64,000 bases of DNA, taken from positions 640,001 to 704,000 of the forward strand of contig CAWJYV010000008.1 in the NCBI GenBank assembly GCA_963847185.1, given 5' to 3'. How positions within the stretch are numbered: position 1 is the first letter of the stretch; every line of letters begins with the position of its first letter. The position numbers were made by a program, and so were the translations under genes. The DNA comes from an uncultured Methanosarcinaceae archaeon. GTDB lineage: Archaea > Halobacteriota > Methanosarcinia > Methanosarcinales > Methanosarcinaceae. Below the pieces are notes generated by a model that saw only the letters and a program-made list of their open reading frames with translations, ran no database searches and was not told where the DNA came from. Positions 1-59,275 of this stretch are shown piece after piece.

Positions 1-2551
1 CCTGAGCCTCTTCAAACTGGGCGCGTTTTAGCTGAAGTTCTTCGAGCCTGTTTCCTTCTAATTTTTCTTCAAGCTGTTTTATCCTTTCATTTCTTTCAAG
101 AATCTCACGGTCAAAGAAACCGACCTTTTCCACCAGATTCCGGATCAAAGTTTCAAGCTCAGAGATTTTGTGCTTGACGTTATCCATCCTGAACAGGTTT
201 GCCTGAACTTTTTTTGCTTGCAGGAGAAGCTTCTCAAACTCCTGATGGGCCTTTTTTGCTTCCTCTTCACTTTTCCGCAGGCTCTCGATTTCAAGTCCCA
301 GGACTTTAAGACTTTCTTTTTCCCGTTTTTCCCTTTCTGCAAGCTCTCTCAACTTCTCATTAAGTTCTCCAAGCCTTTGCCCGTAATTTTCAATCAGCGC
401 AAGGGAAGTTCTGATTTTCCCGTTCAGAGCTTCAATCTCCGAAGTGTTTTCAACAAACTTCTTTTCAAAGGCCTTTACTTCCTGAAGCGTTTTTTCACTT
501 TCACTATGAGCTTTTTGAGCTGCTTCTTCCAGGCCCTGCAGGGCTTTAATGTCGGGGAGAAGCTGGTTCACTTCAGCCTCAAGTTTCTGTTTCTGGGCAT
601 TAAGGCCTTCCAGCTTAAGATAATCTTCCTCGAGCCTGGCTTTATGGATCTTCATCCGTTCTTCAAGATCCTTTGCCTTGATCCTGAGTTTCTCGATTTC
701 AAGCTCGTAATCAGAAATCCGTTTCTCCAGTTTTTTTGCATCCTTGAGCCGGTTGAGCTTTTTCTCGATTTCCTCCTGCTGGAGTTTTATTTCCATGAGT
801 TCTGCTGAAAGCTTTTCTTTTTTCTGTTCGGATTCCTCGGTTGTGCAGGCAATTTCAGACCCTTTAAGCTCCTGTCCGCAGGTAGGGCATTTTCCTTCTG
901 CAAGAAGCTCCAGGTTTTTGCGGAGAACCTTCTCAAGCTCTCTGATAGTTGCTTCAAGCTCTTTTTCCCTCCCATGCAGTCTATTTTTGTTTTCCTGCAA
1001 AAGCTCGCTGAAGTATTCAAGGTCATCGAGCTGTTCTCCGGTAAAACTAAGCCCTTTTAACCCTGTAAAAGCTTCGGATTTCTGCTCCTGAACCTCCAGA
1101 ATTACTCTTTCGTTCTCCCTCAGTTCTTCTTCAAGAGTTTCGATCTCGGTTTTACCTTTTTTGACTGAAAACTCGCAATTTTGAAGCTCTTTTTCAAGCG
1201 CCAGTAAATTTACATCGCCGGTTTCTTTTTCTTTGAAAGCAAGGGCAAGCTTTGCCGAGATTTCACTCTTTCTGTCACGCAGAAGACGTTCTTTTTCTTC
1301 CAGCTCTTTTATGACTGAAGGGATTTCTTGAGTTTCTCCAAACCCTGCCTTTGCTTTAATTGCCTTATTATCCTCTTCGATTTTCCGGATATTTTTCCTG
1401 TTTCCTTCAATTTCCCCGTTTGCAGCTCCGATATCGACTCTGCACTGAGCAAAAATGCGCTCAGTTTCAGCCTTTTCTTTTTCGAAGTCACTTAAGGTTT
1501 TCTTGAGGGTTTCCTCTTCTCTGAAGAGGAGAGCAAGTTCTTTTGAAATGCCATTTACCTTTTCCCTGGCAAGAAACTCTTCTTTTTCCTGCCTTAAGAT
1601 CAGGGCTTCAATATCAAGGGCTCCAAAGCTACATTCTTCTCTGATTGTATTATTTTCCTCTCCCAGTTCAAGCAAAATTTGTCTTTGCTCATGGATTTCC
1701 CCTGATAAAGTTTCTTTTTCCCGGAAGCAGCCAGCTTTGTTTTCTTGAGAGGTTACAATCGCCTGTTTCAGGATGTTGATTTCCTTCAGCCTTTCCCTGT
1801 ACTCTGCAATCATAAGGTCAAACTTTTCTCTACGGGAACTGGCAGCCTCTTTCATTTCATTAAACTTTTTCAAATCACTATCGATTTCCTTTACCTTCTG
1901 CCTGAGTCCATTCAGTATCCTAACGGGTTCTGCACTTTCAACATCCTCAATCTCGGCTTTCACACCCGAAAGACTGTTTTTCGTATCCCTCTCAAGCCTT
2001 CGGACAGCCGTTTTCGCGCTACTTGCTCTTTCCCTGTACTCTTCGAGCTTGCCAAGCTGCAGAAGGTCATCGATCATGCGTTGCCTGTCTTTAGGCTTTG
2101 CATTAATAAGTACATCAATCTCTCCCTGCCGGATGTAAGCACAGTTCCTGTATGCATCTTCATCCATATTCAAAAGGGCACAGACTTCTTCGTAAGTCTT
2201 TGTGGCCTGATCGACAATGCTTTTTCCATCAGCATAGAGTACGCATTTTGAGCTTGAAGCCGTTTCATTTTTTTGAGAATACCGAAAAGCCTGATCAATA
2301 AGATATTCCCTTCCCAGATGCTCGAATCCAAGGCCAATTCTGGCGTTTTCAGCTCCTTTGAAAATTATGTCTGCAAGCACAAAATCCTTTGAAAGGATCT
2401 TGCTTCCGAAAAGTCCCATGAAACAGGCTTCAAGAAGACTTGACTTCCCGCTTCCGTTTACCCCGGAAATTACCGTTACTCCGTCTTCGAAATTGAAATC
2501 CAGCTTTTTATAGCTCCGGATATTTTCGATATGCAGGCTTTTAAGTTTCAC
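1..2551 (-). CDS. rad50: DNA double-strand break repair ATPase Rad50 (SMC-like), 3' end outside window
   Basis: Not in the ORF track because it runs off the window. GTG at 2551 overlaps the mre11 stop (GTGA). Reads MKLKSLHIENIRSYKKLDFNFEDGVTVISGVNGSGKSSLLEA (Walker A), has YIRQGEID (Q-loop), a long coiled coil and the zinc hook GKCPTCGQ at about 872-895. Confidence 0.96.
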   Translation of the reverse strand, partial: MKLKSLHIENIRSYKKLDFNFEDGVTVISGVNGSGKSSLLEACFMGLFGSKILSKDFVLADIIFKGAENARIGLGFEHLGREYLIDQAFRYSQKNETASSSKCVLYADGKSIVDQATKTYEEVCALLNMDEDAYRNCAYIRQGEIDVLINAKPKDRQRMIDDLLQLGKLEEYRERASSAKTAVRRLERDTKNSLSGVKAEIEDVESAEPVRILNGLRQKVKEIDSDLKKFNEMKEAASSRREKFDLMIAEYRERLKEINILKQAIVTSQENKAGCFREKETLSGEIHEQRQILLELGEENNTIREECSFGALDIEALILRQEKEEFLAREKVNGISKELALLFREEETLKKTLSDFEKEKAETERIFAQCRVDIGAANGEIEGNRKNIRKIEEDNKAIKAKAGFGETQEIPSVIKELEEKERLLRDRKSEISAKLALAFKEKETGDVNLLALEKELQNCEFSVKKGKTEIETLEEELRENERVILEVQEQKSEAFTGLKGLSFTGEQLDDLEYFSELLQENKNRLHGREKELEATIRELEKVLRKNLELLAEGKCPTCGQELKGSEIACTTEESEQKKEKLSAELMEIKLQQEEIEKKLNRLKDAKKLEKRISDYELEIEKLRIKAKDLEERMKIHKARLEEDYLKLEGLNAQKQKLEAEVNQLLPDIKALQGLEEAAQKAHSESEKTLQEVKAFEKKFVENTSEIEALNGKIRTSLALIENYGQRLGELNEKLRELAEREKREKESLKVLGLEIESLRKSEEEAKKAHQEFEKLLLQAKKVQANLFRMDNVKHKISELETLIRNLVEKVGFFDREILERNERIKQLEEKLEGNRLEELQLKRAQFEEAQ

Positions 2552-8289: not shown

Positions 8290-8383
8290 TAAACTGGGAA
8301 TAGTAAAATGAAATCTCAAATCACCTAATCTAGATTAAAGATATAAAATGAATTTACAAACCTATGGAAAAAGAGGTGCCTAA

Positions 8384-8932
8384 ATGAAAAAGATGACAGA
8401 ACAACATCTTATAAATGCATTTGGTGGAGAAAGTCAGGCGAATATGAGGTATTTACATTTTGCAAACAAGGCCGACAAAGAAAAATTTGATAATGTAGCC
8501 CGCTTATTCCGTGCAATAGCTCATGCTGAATATATACACGCAGGAGACCATTACCGGGAGTTAAGACACCTCGACGGAGGATTTGTTGCAAACAGCATGG
8601 CAGCTTTTGGTCCCGGTGATACCAGGAAGAACCTTCAACTGGCCATTGCAGGTGAAACATTTGAAATCGAGGAAATGTATCCAGTGTATATAGAAGTAGC
8701 AAAATTCCAGGGAGAAAAAAGCGCACAAAGAAGTTTTGAATGGTCATATAGCACTGAAAAGATGCATAAAATGCTCTTTGAAAAAGCTCTAGAATCAGTT
8801 AATTTAGGAAAAGATGTGGAACTCGGTCCAGTTCAGGTTTGCGAAGTATGCGGATACACCCTTGAAGGAGAAGCACCCGATAGATGTCCCGTATGCAATG
8901 CATTAAAAGATAAATTTACTGCATTCATATAA
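8384..8932 (+). CDS. rbr: Rubrerythrin
   Basis: AFGGESQA, ExxH di-iron motifs and a C-terminal rubredoxin CEVCGY...CPVC. Confidence 0.95.
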   Translation: MKKMTEQHLINAFGGESQANMRYLHFANKADKEKFDNVARLFRAIAHAEYIHAGDHYRELRHLDGGFVANSMAAFGPGDTRKNLQLAIAGETFEIEEMYPVYIEVAKFQGEKSAQRSFEWSYSTEKMHKMLFEKALESVNLGKDVELGPVQVCEVCGYTLEGEAPDRCPVCNALKDKFTAFI

Positions 8933-9012
8933 GCGCATTTCTTAAACAGGCAAATCTGATTATAAAGCTCATCAGTAACCGGAATTGTAAGAATAATTCA
9001 TAAATCCACCCA

Positions 9013-9072
9013 GAAAGGCGAAAGGATAGTTTTACCAGCTTTGGACATGATGTATATTGCCTTTCGCCTTTC
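9013..9072. terminator. Perfect 13-bp inverted repeat between convergent genes
   Basis: gaaaggcgaaagg (9013-9025) pairs with cctttcgcctttc (9060-9072) around a 34-nt loop, followed by T-rich sequence. Confidence 0.55.
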
Positions 9073-9208
9073 ATTTTATTCAAACAAATACTTGCATTTT
9101 TTACTTCTTGCTGTATGTATTTTTTTGATTTTACTCTGTTGAAGTACTATCTATTTCCGAATTTTCAGAACCACAGCGGCTTTCTTAACGGTTTCTAAGC
9201 AAAGTTTT

Positions 9209-9841
9209 TCACCTGCGTAATAGGGAAAAAGCCAATGCAAGAACTGAAACAGAGCCCACAAGTGTGAAAGCTGATGTTGATGCAGACGAAGAAGTGGATC
9301 CTGAAGAGGATGTGGGCGAAGGTTCGGCTTCTGTAACTGGCTGTTCCTTAGAAGTGGGAATTTCACCTTCATAGCGTTCGTTGGAAATAGTGCAGTAGGC
9401 GACTGTAAAACCACCATTAACAAGAGGTTCAGATTCACCATGAGCAAGAATTGTATAATAGATATCTAGAGGTAACGACCCACCTTTCCATCTTTCAGTC
9501 GGTTTTACAGTCCACTCATACTCTCTAGAAGTATTTGCTTCCAAGATATCTCCTTTTGAGTATTCTTCTATTTTTGAAGTTGGACCATTTATAATTTCAA
9601 AAGAATTTCTTTCCATACAAGATAAAGAGACATAGACATCACTTTTTTGATATACTGTGAGATTAATTTTAACTTTAAATGGTTCTTCTACTTTTAAAAA
9701 TGGTTTAGCCATTTCATTTCCAGGTATAATTTTTCCATTGTAATATACATCTATTGAACCGTAAGGAGATTCTGCAAAAGTAATATTTGGTGTAAGCAAA
9801 AAAACTGTAATTAAAAGAAATATACATTTCATTCTCATCAT
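9209..9841 (-). CDS. Sarcinarray-family MAST-domain surface protein
   Basis: Signal peptide, SPYGSIDVYYNG N-terminus, S/T linker, then an SAF + TM + RR C-terminal sorting signal (PGF/PAF-CTERM-like). Confidence 0.8.
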   Translation of the reverse strand: MMRMKCIFLLITVFLLTPNITFAESPYGSIDVYYNGKIIPGNEMAKPFLKVEEPFKVKINLTVYQKSDVYVSLSCMERNSFEIINGPTSKIEEYSKGDILEANTSREYEWTVKPTERWKGGSLPLDIYYTILAHGESEPLVNGGFTVAYCTISNERYEGEIPTSKEQPVTEAEPSPTSSSGSTSSSASTSAFTLVGSVSVLALAFSLLRR

Positions 9842-12800
9842 AATTTCCCTCCTAACTCATCCAAAAGAGTTGCATAATCTTCAGATTCTTCACTGGAGCC
9901 TCCAATTTTGTCTCCAACTCCTTTTGGTCCTGGGCCCACTATTGTTGTTGAATAGCCACTAAAATAAAAAGTAATCATTTCATTAGTCCCTAGTCTTGAT
10001 GCGATTCCACTCTTATCTTTTTTAAAAGGATGAAATATTGGTGATTTTTCTCTCACATACCTCTGCCCTTTATGTCCAAAATAAGGCTCTGGAATCACCT
10101 CGTTATCATTGTCAATAACAGTAAACGACTGATACTTTCCTACAATCTCATACGTCCACACATTCACAGTAAAAATCCAGTGCGGAGGCAATATTGGCAG
10201 ACCACATGGAACAGCTGCCATTGTTCGATCCAGTCTTTTTGAAACCAGGGAGACTTTTTCACCGGAATACTTCCTGGATATTTCGGTTTCCATATTTTTC
10301 AGTTCATTATCGAATCTTACAAAACTGGCATCAAGGGCTTTTCCTCTGGTTGTTGTGACTGCGCAGATGCCGTTTGCAACACCAATTCTGACGTCAGTGT
10401 CGACTCTGTTGAGAGCTGCTTCCAGTTCATCGGGATTGACAGGCGGGTTTGAATTTCGGATTTCTGTTTTGATGGCGGCGGAAAGTTCGGATGCGAACTC
10501 GTCTGTTGTAGTTTTTTCGATCAATTCGTCAGCGGAAAGACTCCTGAAGTAGCTGTATATGACTTCACGCAGACTTTCTTCACTGATCCAGCCTGAAATG
10601 ACAGGATTTGATTTTACTTCGGAGACTACCTCTTTAGTTATTTGAGCTATCATTTCCAAAACGTATGTGTACTTTATGCTGTAGAATTCCCGATTAAGGG
10701 AAGTTGTATCCAGGGAAATGTTCTGTTCGCTAAGATTTTGCCTGAGAAGGAAAAACTCGGTATTCAGGTTGGAAATGCTCTGGCTCATCTGATGGGCGGT
10801 TTCGGTTTTTACGTATTCATCGCTTGAAGCTAAGGCGTCTGCAATTTCCTCGGAGATGCCGGTTGTGAAAATACAGGTGTTCCGAACGCCGAGGGGATAA
10901 ATTGTCTTTCCTGTCATGGAATCGGTCCACTCATATTCTCCTCTGAGGTCGAAATCCGGGTCATGATAGAGATAGTTCGGCTTCTGGTCAATAATCAGGG
11001 TCAGGTTTTCGGTCCAGTTGTACTTGCTCTCTGGCTGGCCGGTAACGGTCATTGTTGAAATGATGCCCATGTCTTTTCCAAGTGCTGAAGAAGCCTTTTT
11101 TATTGCAGGGTTATTGAAAAGAGTCATCGAGCCTGAGGTCACGCTGTCAAGTACGCCAGTATCAAGACCTTTTTTCTTAAGTGCACCCAAAATATAGGAA
11201 TTGAGGTTAGAATCCAGCTTACTGTTTTTCTCTTCGATATCTTTGAGCAGCCTGTTGTAGGCTTCATTTTTTGCAATGTAGCGAGCTGAGTCACTTGAAG
11301 TGTAAATTTTTCCTGAAGGATTGAGGTACTGATTTTTATTTACATAGGAATTCCGGTCTGATTCTAGTTTTCGGATAAGTTTTTCGGAAGCCTTGACCTG
11401 CAGATCTGTCGGATCCTGGCCAGGAGAAGCAACCAGAGAGTAATTGAAGGCTGGATTGTCCTTTTTGACAGAATCAAGCATTGAAAGTACTTCTTCTGCC
11501 ATTAACCTGTGTAACCAGGGTGGAATATCACAGCTGACAACATGTCGGGCAAGATATTTTCGGTCAGGATAAGCCCAGAAACTGCTTTCGATCTTTCTGA
11601 AATCCACATACTTATCCCTATATTTGTCGGCAGCATCGGAACAGCAGGGGTCAAACCTGTTTGTTCCGTTAACATAAACATTCGTTTCTCTATATTCCCT
11701 CGCTGAAGAGCCGGCGTAGCTCGATATGCCTCTATAACCACCTGTAGGAGGGCGCCTGTGGTATATTACTGCCAGGTTCTCAGATTCGGTTTCGGTGTGA
11801 GAAGAAGATTCAGAGTCTATGTAACTTTCAGTTTCGGATTTCGAGCCGCTTGAGGTATCATAATGGGTTACAGTCGTATAATTGCCATCCGGCAATTTCT
11901 CCCTGGTATTCCACTTGTAAGTGTAATCATAACTGTAATCAATTTTCCACTTTGTCCTTATTATGTAGGAGATGCCATAACTGACTTCCCAGTCAAAAAT
12001 ATGATCTTCCCTATTCAGGTAACCTTCACTCCTGTCCGTAACTGTGACTCTGTCGTTACTCTTGTAAAAGTAACGAGGCTCGATTCTCACATCACCTATA
12101 CCAGCAGAAAGCAAACTAACCGAAGCTCCTGTAAGAGACCAGCTGACCATTTTCCCTTTTGGAGGATTAATTGAAGGATTTAAAGATTTAGAATAAGAAT
12201 TTGTAACTACATCACTCCAGGGATAAGAAGGTACAAGAGACCCTGTATGCATTCCTGATGAAAAATAGACTGCTTCCCATCTGACAGTATGCCCGTCAAA
12301 ATGAACTGAATCGCTGTTCAGTTCCGCCGTAAGCTTTGAATCCAGTACACTGGGAGAATCAAAACCGTCTCTAACAATCTGCCCCTGTACAGGAGCCGTG
12401 TAAACGCTATCTGTGACGGTATGAATAAGGTCAGGATTTTCTTTTGTCCACACATGGTCATTGAAAGCCCATCCATCGAGAACGTCATCTATGTAGTCAG
12501 AAGCAGAGACGTTTATTTTCGAATATTCAGAGAGTTGGCCAAAAGATGTATTTCCCTGTTCGATAGATTCCGTGATATCTTTTTCAACGTCCATGGAAAA
12601 GGACCTGTTCTTTGAGAGGGAATCGTAAGTGGTTGTAAGGTTTACGCTCCTGTCCTTTTCATAGAGAGACCCTGAAGCATTGAGGTGGGATGAATAATTT
12701 CCGGTATCGGTATTCTTATTTCTGGAGGCAGAAACGTCTTCATAAAATACCTTTCCGTTGTAATAAGTAGTATAAGTGAGAGCCAGGGGATCAACAGAGT

Positions 12801-56305: not shown

Positions 56306-57028
56306 ATGGAGAGAAATGAAGAAGCCAGTATACTGGCCAGGATCAAAACAGACTTAACCCTGAGTGTGGATGAAAAGACAAAAAACAGTTATTCGCGCTT
56401 TTTTAAAGAAGAAGTCCAGTGCTATGGTGTGAAGTCTGCGCTTGTCGGGAAGATTGCAAAAGATTATTTTAAAGAAGTAAAAAAGGAAAGCAAACAGAAA
56501 ATTTTTACTCTTTGTGAAGAGCTCCTCAGCTCAGACTACTGCGAAGAAGCTTTTATCGCGTTTGAATGGGCCTACCAGTTAAGAGATGACTATTCCGAAG
56601 ACGATTTTTCTACTTTTGAACGCTGGGTCGAGAAATATGTCAATAACTGGGCGAAGTGTGATACCCTCTGCAACCACTCAGTCGGCTCTTTTATTGAGAA
56701 ATTCCCTTCCTACATAGCAAACCTCAAAACCTGGACACAATCGGAAAACAGGTGGATGAGACGTGCAGCCGCAGTAACTCTTATTTTGCCTGCCAGAAAA
56801 GGTGCCTTTCTGGAGGACATTTTTGAAATCTCAGACCTTCTCCTGAAAGATAAAGATGACCTTGTCCAGAAAGGCTACGGCTGGATGCTTAAAGAAGCCA
56901 GCAAATCTCACCAGCCAGAAGTTTTCACATACGTTATGAAAAACAAAAAAGATATGCCCAGAACCGCCCTTCGCTATTCAATAGAAAAATTCCCAAAAGA
57001 CCTCAGAGACAAAGCCATGGCAAAATAA
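56306..57028 (+). CDS. AlkD-like DNA alkylation repair protein
   Basis: NNWAKCD, WMRRAA, VQKGYGWMLKE and RTALRYSIEK. Confidence 0.9.
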   Translation: MERNEEASILARIKTDLTLSVDEKTKNSYSRFFKEEVQCYGVKSALVGKIAKDYFKEVKKESKQKIFTLCEELLSSDYCEEAFIAFEWAYQLRDDYSEDDFSTFERWVEKYVNNWAKCDTLCNHSVGSFIEKFPSYIANLKTWTQSENRWMRRAAAVTLILPARKGAFLEDIFEISDLLLKDKDDLVQKGYGWMLKEASKSHQPEVFTYVMKNKKDMPRTALRYSIEKFPKDLRDKAMAK

Positions 57029-57912
57029 CCTAAAGCACAAAGCTTCAGTAAAAAAGTTGTAATAAGAAAGTTGCAATAGTAAGTTAGTAGCAAGCTGGGT
57101 AAACTGCAGTATTAATTGCAAAAGTAAATTGTAAAATTAATTGCAGAAGAAATCGCAAACGGATTAAAACAAAGTTGCAGTAGTACAGAAATAAGAAGAG
57201 AAATAAAATTATAAATTGGAACTAAAGTTAGAAAAGAGAATAGAAAGAAGATTAATAAAAGGAACTGGATTAAAGCGAAAGAAGACAGATAGGGAAGTAA
57301 GGGAGGAAGGAGCTTTTACAGATACAGTACCCCCATACTGTATCTTTATACTCCTTTTCTCCCGTATTTTCCCGTTTTATGTTCCCCATCTTATTCCTGT
57401 ACTGTTGTTCCCTGCATTTGATTTGCAGGAATAGTCATTCAATTTTTCGTTCGAGTACAAAACTAGAATATCTTCACAAGTATTTTGTTTTATTTACACA
57501 GTCATAGTACGAACTGAACATTCAAAATAAAATTATTATAAAAATTATTGTTTACTTGAAATTTTTTAGTTCCTTTACATTAAAAAAATAAACCTGTCAA
57601 TCCTGAATGCCATTATTTTTAATGGAGTGTGAAAGTACGGGAAATAAAATCAAGTTGATGAAAAAATGATGAAACTAATTCAAAGTTTTCACAAGAAGTT
57701 TCACAAGTGTAATATCCCCTTTTAATTTTTTCCAAAGCAGGAAAATTCAGTTTCAAATTGATGCATTTTTTCCGGCATCGGTTAGGATGTTCGTTAACAA
57801 ATGAGAAATAACTGCAGTTTTATTGATGTGCAGACAGTCTGAGTAATTTGAGTTATCTCCCCATTATATGAAAAATTACGAAATCGCAAGAGTCACATTT
57901 TTCTCGTATTTC

Positions 57913-57949
57913 ATTAGTGAACAAGATCCACTAAAACAAGGATTGAAAC
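57913..57949 (+). CRISPR. Orphan CRISPR repeat, copy 1 (37 nt)
   Basis: ATTAGTGAACAAGATCCACTAAAACAAGGATTGAAAC has the ATTGAAAC 3' handle and an ATCC/GGAT stem. It differs by 3 nt from the Methanosarcina repeat as I recall it (ATTCGCGAGCAAGATCCACTAAAACAAGGATTGAAAC). Confidence 0.85.
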
Positions 57950-58021
57950 AATAGTATGGTAACGTATATAGCCCAGGAAAATGAAGTACAAGATAGTTAA
58001 AAAATTGTAGAAGGTGCGAAA

Positions 58022-58243
58022 GTGGGGGAACCCCAAGATAAGAGAAAGAAACCCGAGCGCGAAGAACCACGTTATGACAGATTTTACGCAGAAGACGGAA
58101 GCATGGAAATAAGCAAGGCGGGCCCCTTGACCGATGAGGACAGGGCGGAATTAGCGGCCATGCTTAATCTGTTAGGCGTACCAGGCGAGGGCAAGGAAGG
58201 CCAGGCAAGCAAGGAAGCTAAGAAGGGGAAAAAGGGACGGTGA
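58022..58243 (+). CDS. Small hypothetical protein lying between the two CRISPR repeats (MGE-like)
   Basis: 73 aa; AAGGTG RBS before GTG; GC-richer than the flanks; basic C-terminus; no recognisable family. Confidence 0.6.
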   Translation: MGEPQDKRKKPEREEPRYDRFYAEDGSMEISKAGPLTDEDRAELAAMLNLLGVPGEGKEGQASKEAKKGKKGR

Positions 58244-58443
58244 GAATATCGAAGCGGACCTTAAGGCAGGGACCCTAAAACGCGGCCTTAATCAGCCTGT
58301 CTTTTTTCATCTAATTATTACGACCGGAAAGGCCGGTCTATTTCCCTTATGAGATGGGGGCGGCTTTTTTCAAAACGGTCCTACGTATCATAAAACAGGA
58401 AAAAATTAAAGATGTTTTCATCTACTGTGTGGACCGGCATAAA

Positions 58444-58479
58444 ATTCGCGAGCAAGATCCCTATAACAAGGATTGAAAC
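58444..58479 (+). CRISPR. Orphan CRISPR repeat, copy 2 (36 nt), followed by a 37-nt spacer-like segment
   Basis: ATTCGCGAGCAAGATCCCTATAACAAGGATTGAAAC; the last 15 nt are identical to copy 1. Confidence 0.85.
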
Positions 58480-58593
58480 CGAGTAAAGTCAGAATACAAA
58501 ATAAAGCGAGAAAGAAATCATGAGGCAAGTTTCGACTTTTTACTTCAAAAATAAAAAAGATGGGAATAGATAGTTATCCCACATCTCGTGATC

Positions 58594-58992
58594 TTATTCG
58601 GTAGTCACGCCGTCGAATTCGGCTTCATTAGCTTCAGCCTCTTCCTTCGTGGCGCGCAAGATTCCATCCTTGTGATGTGCCGGAGAATAGATCGTATAGA
58701 GCTTCAGTTCTTCCGTTTTTGAAGTGTTGATAATATTGTGCTGCGCGCCGGCAGGCACTACAATCGCAACCCCATCACTGAGTTCATACTCGTTGCCGTC
58801 AATTATGCACTTACCCTGCCCGCTTTCAAAACGGAAAAACTGGTCGTTTTCCTCATGAACTTCCATCCCGATTTCTTCTTCAGGCTTCAAGCTCATAAGC
58901 ACCAATTGACTGTGCTTTGAAGTATAGAGCACCTTGCGGAAATTGTCATTTTCCAAAGTGGCCTCCTCGATATTAATACAGAATCCTTTCAT
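58594..58992 (-). CDS. Cupin-domain protein
   Basis: NFRKVLYT, QLVLMSL, EVH...DQFF, VPAGAQHNI and YTIYSPAHH. Confidence 0.92.
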   Translation of the reverse strand: MKGFCINIEEATLENDNFRKVLYTSKHSQLVLMSLKPEEEIGMEVHEENDQFFRFESGQGKCIIDGNEYELSDGVAIVVPAGAQHNIINTSKTEELKLYTIYSPAHHKDGILRATKEEAEANEAEFDGVTTE

Positions 58993-59275
58993 ATTTTTTA
59001 ATTTATGATTGATTGTATATAAAATTATTCGAGAACATGATTAATAAAAAGAAGAATTGGAACTTTTACTTTTTTTTATGATTATATTCTGGCTCTCTTT
59101 GATTCCTGGTTCCTTGTGTTGCGAATTCAAATCTCATTAAGGAAATAATTTTATTGAAGTCCTGCACTAAGGTAAGTTCATGTCAATTTGTTTAACTGAA
59201 GGCACTATTTCTTTGGAAAGTTTTTCCCCAAAACGGGAGGGTACATATCCAGTTAGAAACAGAGAAAAATATCGG

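Follow-up and report, generated by a model that had tools for sequence, protein, structure and literature searches.

Two orphan CRISPR repeats enclosing a gene-sized spacer at the remains of a type I-B locus in a Methanosarcinaceae archaeon

How do two repeats of a CRISPR array come to stand alone around an intact gene? The question is raised by a 64,000-nt stretch of DNA from an uncultured Methanosarcinaceae archaeon (contig CAWJYV010000008.1; G000:C8:640001-704000 in our numbering; hereafter the window), which belongs to a genome that is 99.8% complete in 10 contigs. The type of repeat and gene content such as a methanogen output domain point to a methanogen of the Methanosarcina type. The original prediction, made from the letters of the window, described two repeats of the same orientation that share their last 15 nt and lie 494 bp apart, and it offered three origins for the DNA between them: (a) capture by Cas1 of an oversized viral or plasmid fragment, (b) integration of an element using the repeat as its attachment (att) site, or (c) a cassette whose mRNA is cut out by Cas6 at both ends. 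Direct reading bears out the arrangement, and we confirm that two orphan CRISPR repeats, R1 and R2, enclose an oversized spacer here:

57913-57949, plus strand: CRISPR repeat R1, 37 nt, ATTAGTGAACAAGATCCACTAAAACAAGGATTGAAAC; three substitutions from the genus consensus, all in the 5' third
57950-58443, plus strand: oversized spacer, 494 bp of unique, GC-richer, accessory-type DNA
58444-58479, plus strand: CRISPR repeat R2, 36 nt, ATTCGCGAGCAAGATCCCTATAACAAGGATTGAAAC; one deletion and one substitution against the consensus, in the loop

We show below that R1 and R2 are the last remains of a type I-B CRISPR-Cas locus that relatives carry between the same marker genes, and that the family of the enclosed gene, a 73-aa open reading frame (ORF) called ORF73, recurs between CRISPR repeats in several genomes. 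Three things had escaped the original prediction: that a whole deleted type I-B locus has left its relic at this site, that a second repeat pair of this genome encloses 4.6 kb, and that the gene family recurs between repeats elsewhere.

The two repeats lie on the same strand, 530 nt apart from start to start. Their final 15 nt are identical and both retain the ATTGAAAC handle and the ATCC/GGAT stem, as had been read; the mismatches between them, at 6 positions plus one indel, fall within the first 22 nt. Over the full length of the Rfam model RF01320 CRISPR-DR7 (model positions 1-37 of 37), R1 scores 51.7 bits and R2 41.6 bits, both above the gathering score of 37, and both match large arrays of the genus, in whose other genomes arrays of this repeat type hold 42-74 copies. 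The genus consensus repeat, ATTCGCGAGCAAGATCCACTAAAACAAGGATTGAAAC, accounts for 71 of the 74 array copies in the related genome G007 and for 40 of the 42 in G013, and identity to the type I-B array consensus of G007 is 92% for R1 and 95% for R2. The chance expectation for the 28-nt degenerate repeat pattern in the window is 0.00. A type I-B array would hold at least three repeats at a regular period of ~72-74 nt; here there are two repeats only. A decayed array hidden within the 494 bp is ruled out, the insert containing no further repeat-like match at E<50.

From what did these repeats descend? The answer comes from the genes on either side, which are the markers of an ancestral locus:

56306-57028, plus strand: DNA alkylation repair gene (Pfam PF08713, E 2.5e-67), left synteny marker of the ancestral type I-B locus
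57755-57790, minus strand: final ~36 nt of a regulator gene of the csa3 type (CARF-HTH), where the deletion of the cas operon has its left breakpoint
58594-58992, minus strand: cupin gene (Pfam PF07883, E 2.5e-15), right synteny marker, which the trailer end of the array adjoins in relatives

In G007 the locus runs from the alkylation repair gene through the CARF-HTH regulator, cas8b, cas7, cas5, cas3, cas6b, cas1, cas2 and cas4 to a 112-nt leader, a same-strand array of ~70 repeats, solitary repeats with genes between them, and finally the cupin gene; the alkylation repair orthologue sits just outside the csa3 and cas8b-cas4 operon. In the window, 1.6 kb separates these markers. The sole remnant of the operon is the 36-nt csa3 tail, which matches the 3' end of the G007 CARF-HTH gene (57755-57790 against L030 9729-9694; blastn, 81% over 36 nt), and neither adjacent cas genes nor a leader accompany the repeats. 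The interval 57791-57912 was considered as a leader and rejected, its similarity to the leaders of relatives being 29-31 against a mean of 26 (standard deviation 5) for shuffles. On the right, cupin orthologues adjoin arrays or degenerate repeats in G007, G013, G010, G024, G011 and G016, and degenerate repeats adjoin the cupin orthologue in six further species. The left breakpoint is common to G009, the closest genome compared (~92% identity), whose homology with the window stops at 57788; there follow in G009 one perfect repeat, a 38-nt spacer, a degenerate repeat, an inverted glnK-amtB pair and then the common right flank, from which R2 of the window sits 5 nt away. The glnK-amtB pair, named by reading the translations (P-II protein, 112 aa, and ammonium transporter, 537 aa; L018 (G009:C262) 975-2923, on the opposite strand to the repeats), separates the leftover repeats from the cupin flank.

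The absence of cas genes, which had been noted for the window, was borne out by a search of the genome. With nine type I-B proteins of G007 as tblastn queries, eight gave no match in the genome at E<=0.01 and the ninth gave one distant Cas1-like piece, on another contig. Cas6 (PF01881) and RAMP (PF03787) each have 0 matches in the genome, in which we found no gene for Cas6, Cas2-5, Cas7, Cas8b or RAMP and no long array of the R1/R2 type of repeat. Three Cas1-like fragments are present (G000:C10:424297-424659, C4:16751-16951 and C6:17640-17750), one with an open frame of 241 aa that covers only the C-terminal part of the family and two with stop codons; they could be remnants of cas1 or of casposon-type elements. 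In this lineage, then, the cas operon has been deleted by a cut starting inside csa3 and the array has been reduced to two repeats, which would now be inert in a genome without cas genes.

What the two repeats enclose can be described in four features:

57963-57972, plus strand: TATA-box-like element upstream of ORF73, a putative archaeal promoter
58010-58016, plus strand: ribosome-binding site GAAGGTG, 5 nt before the GTG start
58022-58243, plus strand: ORF73, 73-aa gene with homologues, in no Pfam or PHROG family
58307-58384, plus strand: degraded remnant of a second small ORF (tblastx to G016:C3), containing the hairpin GACCGG/CCGGTC

The insert is present in a single copy in the genome, and its G+C fraction is 0.52-0.56 in 58000-58300 against 0.25-0.39 in the flanks. 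This enrichment had been predicted, as had the hairpin (58322-58339) and the T-runs, and all are present. ORF73 is a real gene: the complete 73-aa frame and its ribosome-binding site were read correctly, and homologues exist. The 'ORF tail' that had been proposed at 57950-58000 does not stand, for it comes to only 16 codons, is read out of the repeat and overlaps the TATA-like element that is conserved upstream of homologues. If expressed, ORF73 would rely on its own promoter. Among 1.84 billion representatives there are three homologues of 63-69 aa with 62, 54 and 42% identity (P0001, P0002 and P0004), the best being P0001 (62%, E 3.8e-10), and the invariant core of these four small proteins is F.AEDGSME..K..P.T..D..EL. 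ORF73 also fits the core of a wider family of proteins of ~45-140 aa, R-F..(E/D)G..F.KA.P(L/I)T.E(D/E)..E, and F21, P35, T37 and E43 are invariant in 14 aligned sequences (alignments A1 and A2). Pfam, PHROG and Atlas gave no lead to its function. The AlphaFold model (mean predicted local distance difference test score, pLDDT, of 67) has one helix, at 38-51, in a chain mostly of low confidence.

No source element for the insert was found. It is without a real match in 58 further genomes of the genus and without a blastn match in phage and plasmid collections, and back-translated patterns led to no source element in IMG/VR, the JGI metagenomes or genomes of the species; thus the viral or plasmid match that had been thought worth seeking did not appear, and no viral or plasmid source is identified. 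Spacers of the 58 relatives gave two weak short matches to the insert, neither within an array. ORF73 is the only complete ORF in the insert, which carries no integrase, recombinase or transposase gene of its own, no other transposition genes and no terminal inverted repeats. A recombination between a spacer and its protospacer is ruled out, for the insert ends show no terminal direct repeat of the kind that a duplicated spacer would leave.

The kind of DNA involved is suggested by G016:C3, with which the insert is collinear in tblastx: a homologue of ORF73 (39% over 51 aa) comes first there and, with the same spacing, another small ORF comes next, to which the remnant in the window corresponds (42% over 26 aa; joint E 4.8e-8). 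A TATA-rich element precedes the ORF73 homologue in all three of the window genome, G062 and G016:C3. The neighbours in G016:C3 are VapB-like, MqsA-like, nucleotidyltransferase, HNH, Schlafen and PIN genes, and in G052 a longer ORF73 homologue lies between a tRNA-Leu gene and a primase-polymerase. On account of these gene contexts in G016 and G052, ORF73 belongs to the accessory, defence-island or mobile-element gene pool. The insert would then be an accessory DNA fragment of the toxin-antitoxin/defence-island or mobile-element kind, in which ORF73 is intact, with a ribosome-binding site and a promoter-like element of its own, and only the beginning of the following gene is left, in decayed form. 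In G016:C3 a TTGA-type microsatellite of ~15 units (L047 ~1440-1500, minus strand) lies directly after the stop codon of the ORF73 homologue and before the next small ORF.

Is the association of this gene with CRISPR repeats peculiar to the window? A profile search for the ORF73 family in 401 genomes of the phylum and 177 genomes of the family gave 15 loci, the window locus included, and at 9 of them (7 genomes, two genera) there are same-strand repeats within 500 nt: one each in the window genome, G062, G050, G291 and G470, and two each in G380 and G281. In G291, a single-contig genome, a 75-repeat array is followed by the ORF73 homologue and, 28 nt later, by a repeat; in G380 and G281, the start codon of each of the two copies lies ~47 nt past a degenerate repeat, and a further repeat stands ~28 nt beyond the stop codon. 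In G062 the homologue occupies the middle insert of a stand-alone block of four repeats, whose inserts of 491, 433 and 335 nt hold one sense ORF each, and in G050 it is one in a long series of repeat-bounded intervals. The ends of the fragment differ between the window genome and G062, and the flanking repeats are of the local genus variant. As a control, we took the 70-aa gene family of the other two G062 inserts, which has 28 other loci in 25 genomes (177 searched): none of the 28 has same-strand flanking repeats, and one has two partial matches on the opposite strand. The control is weaker outside g1, because the repeats of other genera may differ from the query repeat. Two observations concern individual homologues. 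The G050 copy (L063 (G050:C114) 10448-10843, minus strand) has one in-frame TAG and may be a pseudogene; methanogens of the Methanosarcina type can read through TAG as pyrrolysine. In g17 genomes an AAA_14/DUF4143 ATPase gene lies antisense and directly upstream of the ORF73 homologue, in the same repeat-bounded interval (L049 (G380:C6) 10809-12140 and L048 (G291) 8367-9698).

Genes other than ORF73 occur between repeats as well. From the loci reached through the ORF73 family and the cupin synteny, which do not amount to an unbiased census, we extracted 15 intervals of 150-1100 nt between same-strand repeats (one in the window genome, three in G062, nine in G050 and one each in G291 and G380). 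An ORF of at least 70 aa is present on the repeat strand in 9 of the 15 and on the other strand in none, and 6 of the 15 have no ORF of this size; the two 70-aa genes of G062 are paralogues, which makes the number of independent intervals lower. The contents comprise a UbiA prenyltransferase, a Phd-like/Doc pair, a zinc-ribbon protein and unknown proteins. The UbiA unit, both repeats included, is 90% identical between G050 and G007, and the Doc units of G050 and G013 share 73% identity, so part of the trailer region has been inherited vertically. The four-repeat block of G062 occupies an intergenic site that has no repeat in the window genome.

A second pair of near-consensus repeats in the same orientation lies elsewhere in the window genome (C4:123274-123310 and 127876-127912; L024 11275-11311 and 15877-15913). 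It encloses ~4.6 kb (4602 bp) with Oxidored_q6, PRiA4_ORF3-like, TPR and pentapeptide-repeat genes, and it lies between atpB of the N-ATPase operon and kaiC, which are 1-2 kb apart in most relatives compared. G009 carries one of the pair's repeats, and no repeats were present at the atpB-kaiC site in the five relatives checked. Two other copies of the repeat, which have degenerated further, stand by themselves at G000:C10:302275-302305 and G000:C2:66751-66775. Gene-bearing, repeat-bounded inserts probably form a class in this archaeal family, found where arrays are oldest (the trailer end) and in small blocks of repeats that stand alone; in the short intervals examined, each long ORF is read on the repeat strand.

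An empty site was found when Logan contigs of four runs were aligned to 57000-59200. A contig of the soil-metagenome run X3 (contig record 12; 2834 nt, depth 7, 23 differences in 899 aligned letters) follows the window over 57767-57934 and continues with 58465-59195, omitting 530 nt (57935-58464), with 15 letters that fit either side of the joint. What is missing amounts to the insert and one repeat, the crossover falling in the common 3' part of the repeats, and the strain differs from the window genome by ~3-4%; the original prediction had named an empty single-repeat site in a related strain as something to look for. The 15-letter overlap at the joint is shorter than the 31-letter words named for Logan's index; if Logan contigs are built from 31-letter words, which we take to be the case, an overlap of 15 letters would not create this joint by assembly. 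Since the contig omits exactly 530 nt, the insert and one repeat were therefore gained or lost as a unit by recombination inside the repeats. Two points favour a deletion in the X3 strain: where R2 stands in the window, G009 may have preserved a terminal repeat, if a very degenerate one (12 of 21 letters, by eye), and R1 and R2 are too unlike for recent duplicates. An insertion through the 15-nt crossover would look the same. The remaining runs X1, X2 and X8 cover only small parts of 57000-59200, and 151-nt contigs from two runs other than X3 are 100% identical to the interior of ORF73. A joint in run X2 (57949 to 58438, with 30 other letters) was rejected, being most likely an ordinary repeat-spacer-repeat of another organism.

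The reading of these results that we consider probable is that a type I-B relic holds an accessory gene unit that was exchanged by recombination at the repeats: the insert would have entered an array, or moved between arrays, through recombination at repeats and not through the ruler mechanism of Cas1-Cas2. Of the original prediction, the general picture of orphan repeats around an oversized, gene-carrying spacer of foreign type holds, and the att-site element of option (b) is in part supported: the exact 530-nt presence and absence, the 15-nt crossover zone and the single copy of the would-be att site in the X3 contig speak for it, but the insert has no integrase and a deletion would look alike. 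Several observations weigh against recombination at the repeats as the whole account. Neither in nor beside the insert is there a recombinase, integrase or transposase; deletion and insertion yield the same empty site, and the X3 contig thus gives no direction; the collinear matches in G016:C3 are short and weak (39% over 51 aa and 42% over 26 aa). At 6 of the 15 ORF73-family loci the repeats are not nearby, and the nine repeat-flanked loci come from related genomes and represent fewer independent events, the g17 copies being 85-95% alike. Larger intervals carry antisense genes too (the AAA_14 ATPase, RNB, the C4 block), and the RNA run X8 covers only the region of the cupin gene and not the insert.

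Could the repeats have a function in the expression of the genes between them? A functional platform can be imagined in which cassettes on the strand of the CRISPR RNA (crRNA) are co-transcribed with the array and released by Cas6b as mRNAs, in an integron-like way, the window holding a cassette stranded by the loss of the system. In its broadest form, the arrays of this methanogen family would double as gene-cassette platforms, whose accessory genes on the crRNA strand are shuffled in and out, and seeded even at sites outside CRISPR loci, through recombination or integration at the repeats and appear as Cas6b-released mRNAs where that enzyme is present, a generalization that we find unlikely to hold. 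The strand bias is what such a platform would produce (all 9 ORFs of at least 70 aa in short intervals lie on the repeat strand, mostly as one long ORF per interval), yet it could merely reflect avoidance of head-on transcription. The contents, with the Phd/Doc pair, small unknown proteins and UbiA, resemble integron cargo, the UbiA cassette is 90% conserved with both its repeats between G050 and G007, and the g17 repeat begins ~28 nt past the stop codon in 5 copies. However, ORF73 and its relatives in G062 and G016 have their own TATA-like element and ribosome-binding site and need no array transcript, and the gene is intact in a genome without Cas6, where processing is evidently not needed for its maintenance. 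As a whole we hold the platform to be doubtful. Cutting by Cas6 at both ends, option (c), cannot act in the window genome, where no Cas6, Cas6b or RAMP gene was found; it may occur in relatives in which an insert of this kind and cas genes are both present.

Recombination between repeats is likewise to be set against direct capture, that is, integration of a ~0.5-kb fragment of an invader like a spacer by the former Cas1-Cas2-Cas4, with similar accidents retained elsewhere for a useful gene. The exact bounding of the insert by full-length repeats, seen also for the 491-, 433- and 335-nt inserts of G062, agrees with capture, as do the accessory or mobile-element type of content, the local genus variant of the flanking repeats, and the different fragment ends around the same gene region in the window genome and G062, which independent captures would be expected to give. 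The dimensions and the position do not agree with it: spacers of this system measure ~35-38 nt (array periods ~72-74 nt), the length that the ruler would set, and the insert measures 494 nt; no capture of hundreds of bases was found in the literature searched; and the leader end is where new spacers are added, while the inserts described here stand at trailer ends or in stand-alone blocks. Cas1-Cas2 integration also leaves duplicate flanking repeats, and R1 and R2 are too unlike to be recent duplicates. As a recent event, option (a) therefore fails, given the differences between the repeats at 6 positions plus an indel, an empty-site strain ~3-4% away and the want of a usable Cas1; an ancient oversized capture by Cas1 may have taken place, and as an explanation of the locus and its counterparts capture seems to us rather improbable.

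A plainer account is decay, with one ancient chance insertion or rearrangement in an old array end, vertical descent of all repeat-flanked ORF73 copies, and an association without mechanistic meaning. It is known that arrays degenerate at their trailer ends, some of the trailer is indeed vertical here (UbiA is common to G050 and G007, and the Doc cassette to G050 and G013), and genes as unrelated as glnK-amtB stand at the same place in G009. Vertical descent from one event is nevertheless difficult to fit to copies that are not syntenic: the G062 block lies at a site that is empty in the window genome, the G050 contig has no flank in common with the window locus, and the fragment boundaries differ. 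Moreover, the family is enclosed by repeats in two genera whose repeat variants differ, and the control family shows no such association, so that decay alone is hardly a probable explanation. Finally, a misassembly of a collapsed array that joined the insert to the repeats can be dismissed, even though arrays often break assemblies and this genome is in 10 contigs, for the repeats have degenerated and are unlike each other, both border on unique flanks conserved in G009, the same architecture occurs in independent assemblies including the single-contig G291, and metagenomic contigs match the interior of the insert at 100% over 151 nt.

With an accessory unit exchanged at the repeats of a dead type I-B locus as the preferred reading, it is instructive to compare the locus with known systems. 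It resembles the orphan arrays left after cas loss in its RF01320 repeats, its lack of cas genes, its type I-B-syntenic position and its mutated repeats; it differs from them in that a single 494-bp 'spacer' holds an intact conserved gene and in that a second pair encloses 4.6 kb. Integron cassettes consist of single genes, small or lacking a promoter, that all point the same way and have a repeated recombination site at their boundaries, and their cargo is rich in toxin-antitoxin genes. The co-oriented single genes, the repeated boundary, the toxin-antitoxin and small unknown cargo and the gain or loss by units recall them, but there is no integron integrase or attC here, the boundary is a CRISPR repeat, and ORF73 seems to have its own promoter. 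In mini-arrays of the CreTA type, a spacer-sized pseudo-spacer guides Cascade to a promoter, for which Cas proteins are needed. These too have two degenerate repeats around a non-standard 'spacer' in or near a cas locus, and a link to toxin-antitoxin genes; here, however, the interval is 494 nt long and protein-coding, and the genome has no Cascade genes and no Cas proteins.

Further parallels are found in published reports. Regulatory mini-arrays resembling crRNAs are described in one of them (10.1101/2023.03.03.530964). Solitary repeat units acting as RNA anti-CRISPRs (PMC10651486) and virus-borne mini-arrays (PMC6858448) are known on viruses and plasmids; they share with our locus isolated repeats away from cas genes, beside small genes of mobile-element type, and homology for recombination with host arrays, but they are short (a repeat, or repeat, normal spacer and repeat) and act as RNA, whereas R1 and R2 enclose a protein gene at a chromosomal, syntenic position, the ancestral array site, with no match to phages, plasmids or IMG/VR. 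Toxin-antitoxin genes (Fic/Doc, Phd) are associated with type I loci, where PMC3936711 reports them among the cas genes; G050 and G013 have a Phd-like/Doc pair enclosed by repeats, a repeat-bounded unit of an array, which is not the arrangement reported in that paper. Tn7-like transposons target CRISPR repeats in cyanobacteria (10.1101/2024.10.13.618069) and likewise put foreign DNA within arrays; they are large and carry transposase genes, whereas our insert has neither transposition genes nor terminal inverted repeats. Gene-sized spacers, repeat-bounded gene cassettes or a gene family recurring in them were not found in the literature searched, which did not extend to supplements, where cases may be held.

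Gene-sized 'spacers' escape notice because array finders drop intervals of more than ~60-100 nt. If the inserts reflect more than decay, CRISPR repeats would be portable boundaries for recombination, and perhaps for RNA processing, of protein genes; they would link adaptive immunity with toxin-antitoxin and defence islands and with cassette-type gene mobility, and natural repeat-gene-repeat units might serve for multiplexed expression in archaea. Were the cassette platform real, CRISPR repeats would be used in the manner of an integron, and the cassette in the window would have outlived its CRISPR-Cas system. Even if decay explains everything, the locus shows in a clean and datable way how a type I-B system disappears.

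One more feature lies between the left marker gene and the csa3 tail. The region 57298-57505 is ~70% identical to the intergenic region between the alkylation repair gene and the csa3-type gene in G007, and to many genomes of the genus. A 72-aa ORF (57216-57434) that may be the gene of a small membrane protein overlaps this region; the C-terminal half of the ORF product is hydrophobic and is conserved in G009.

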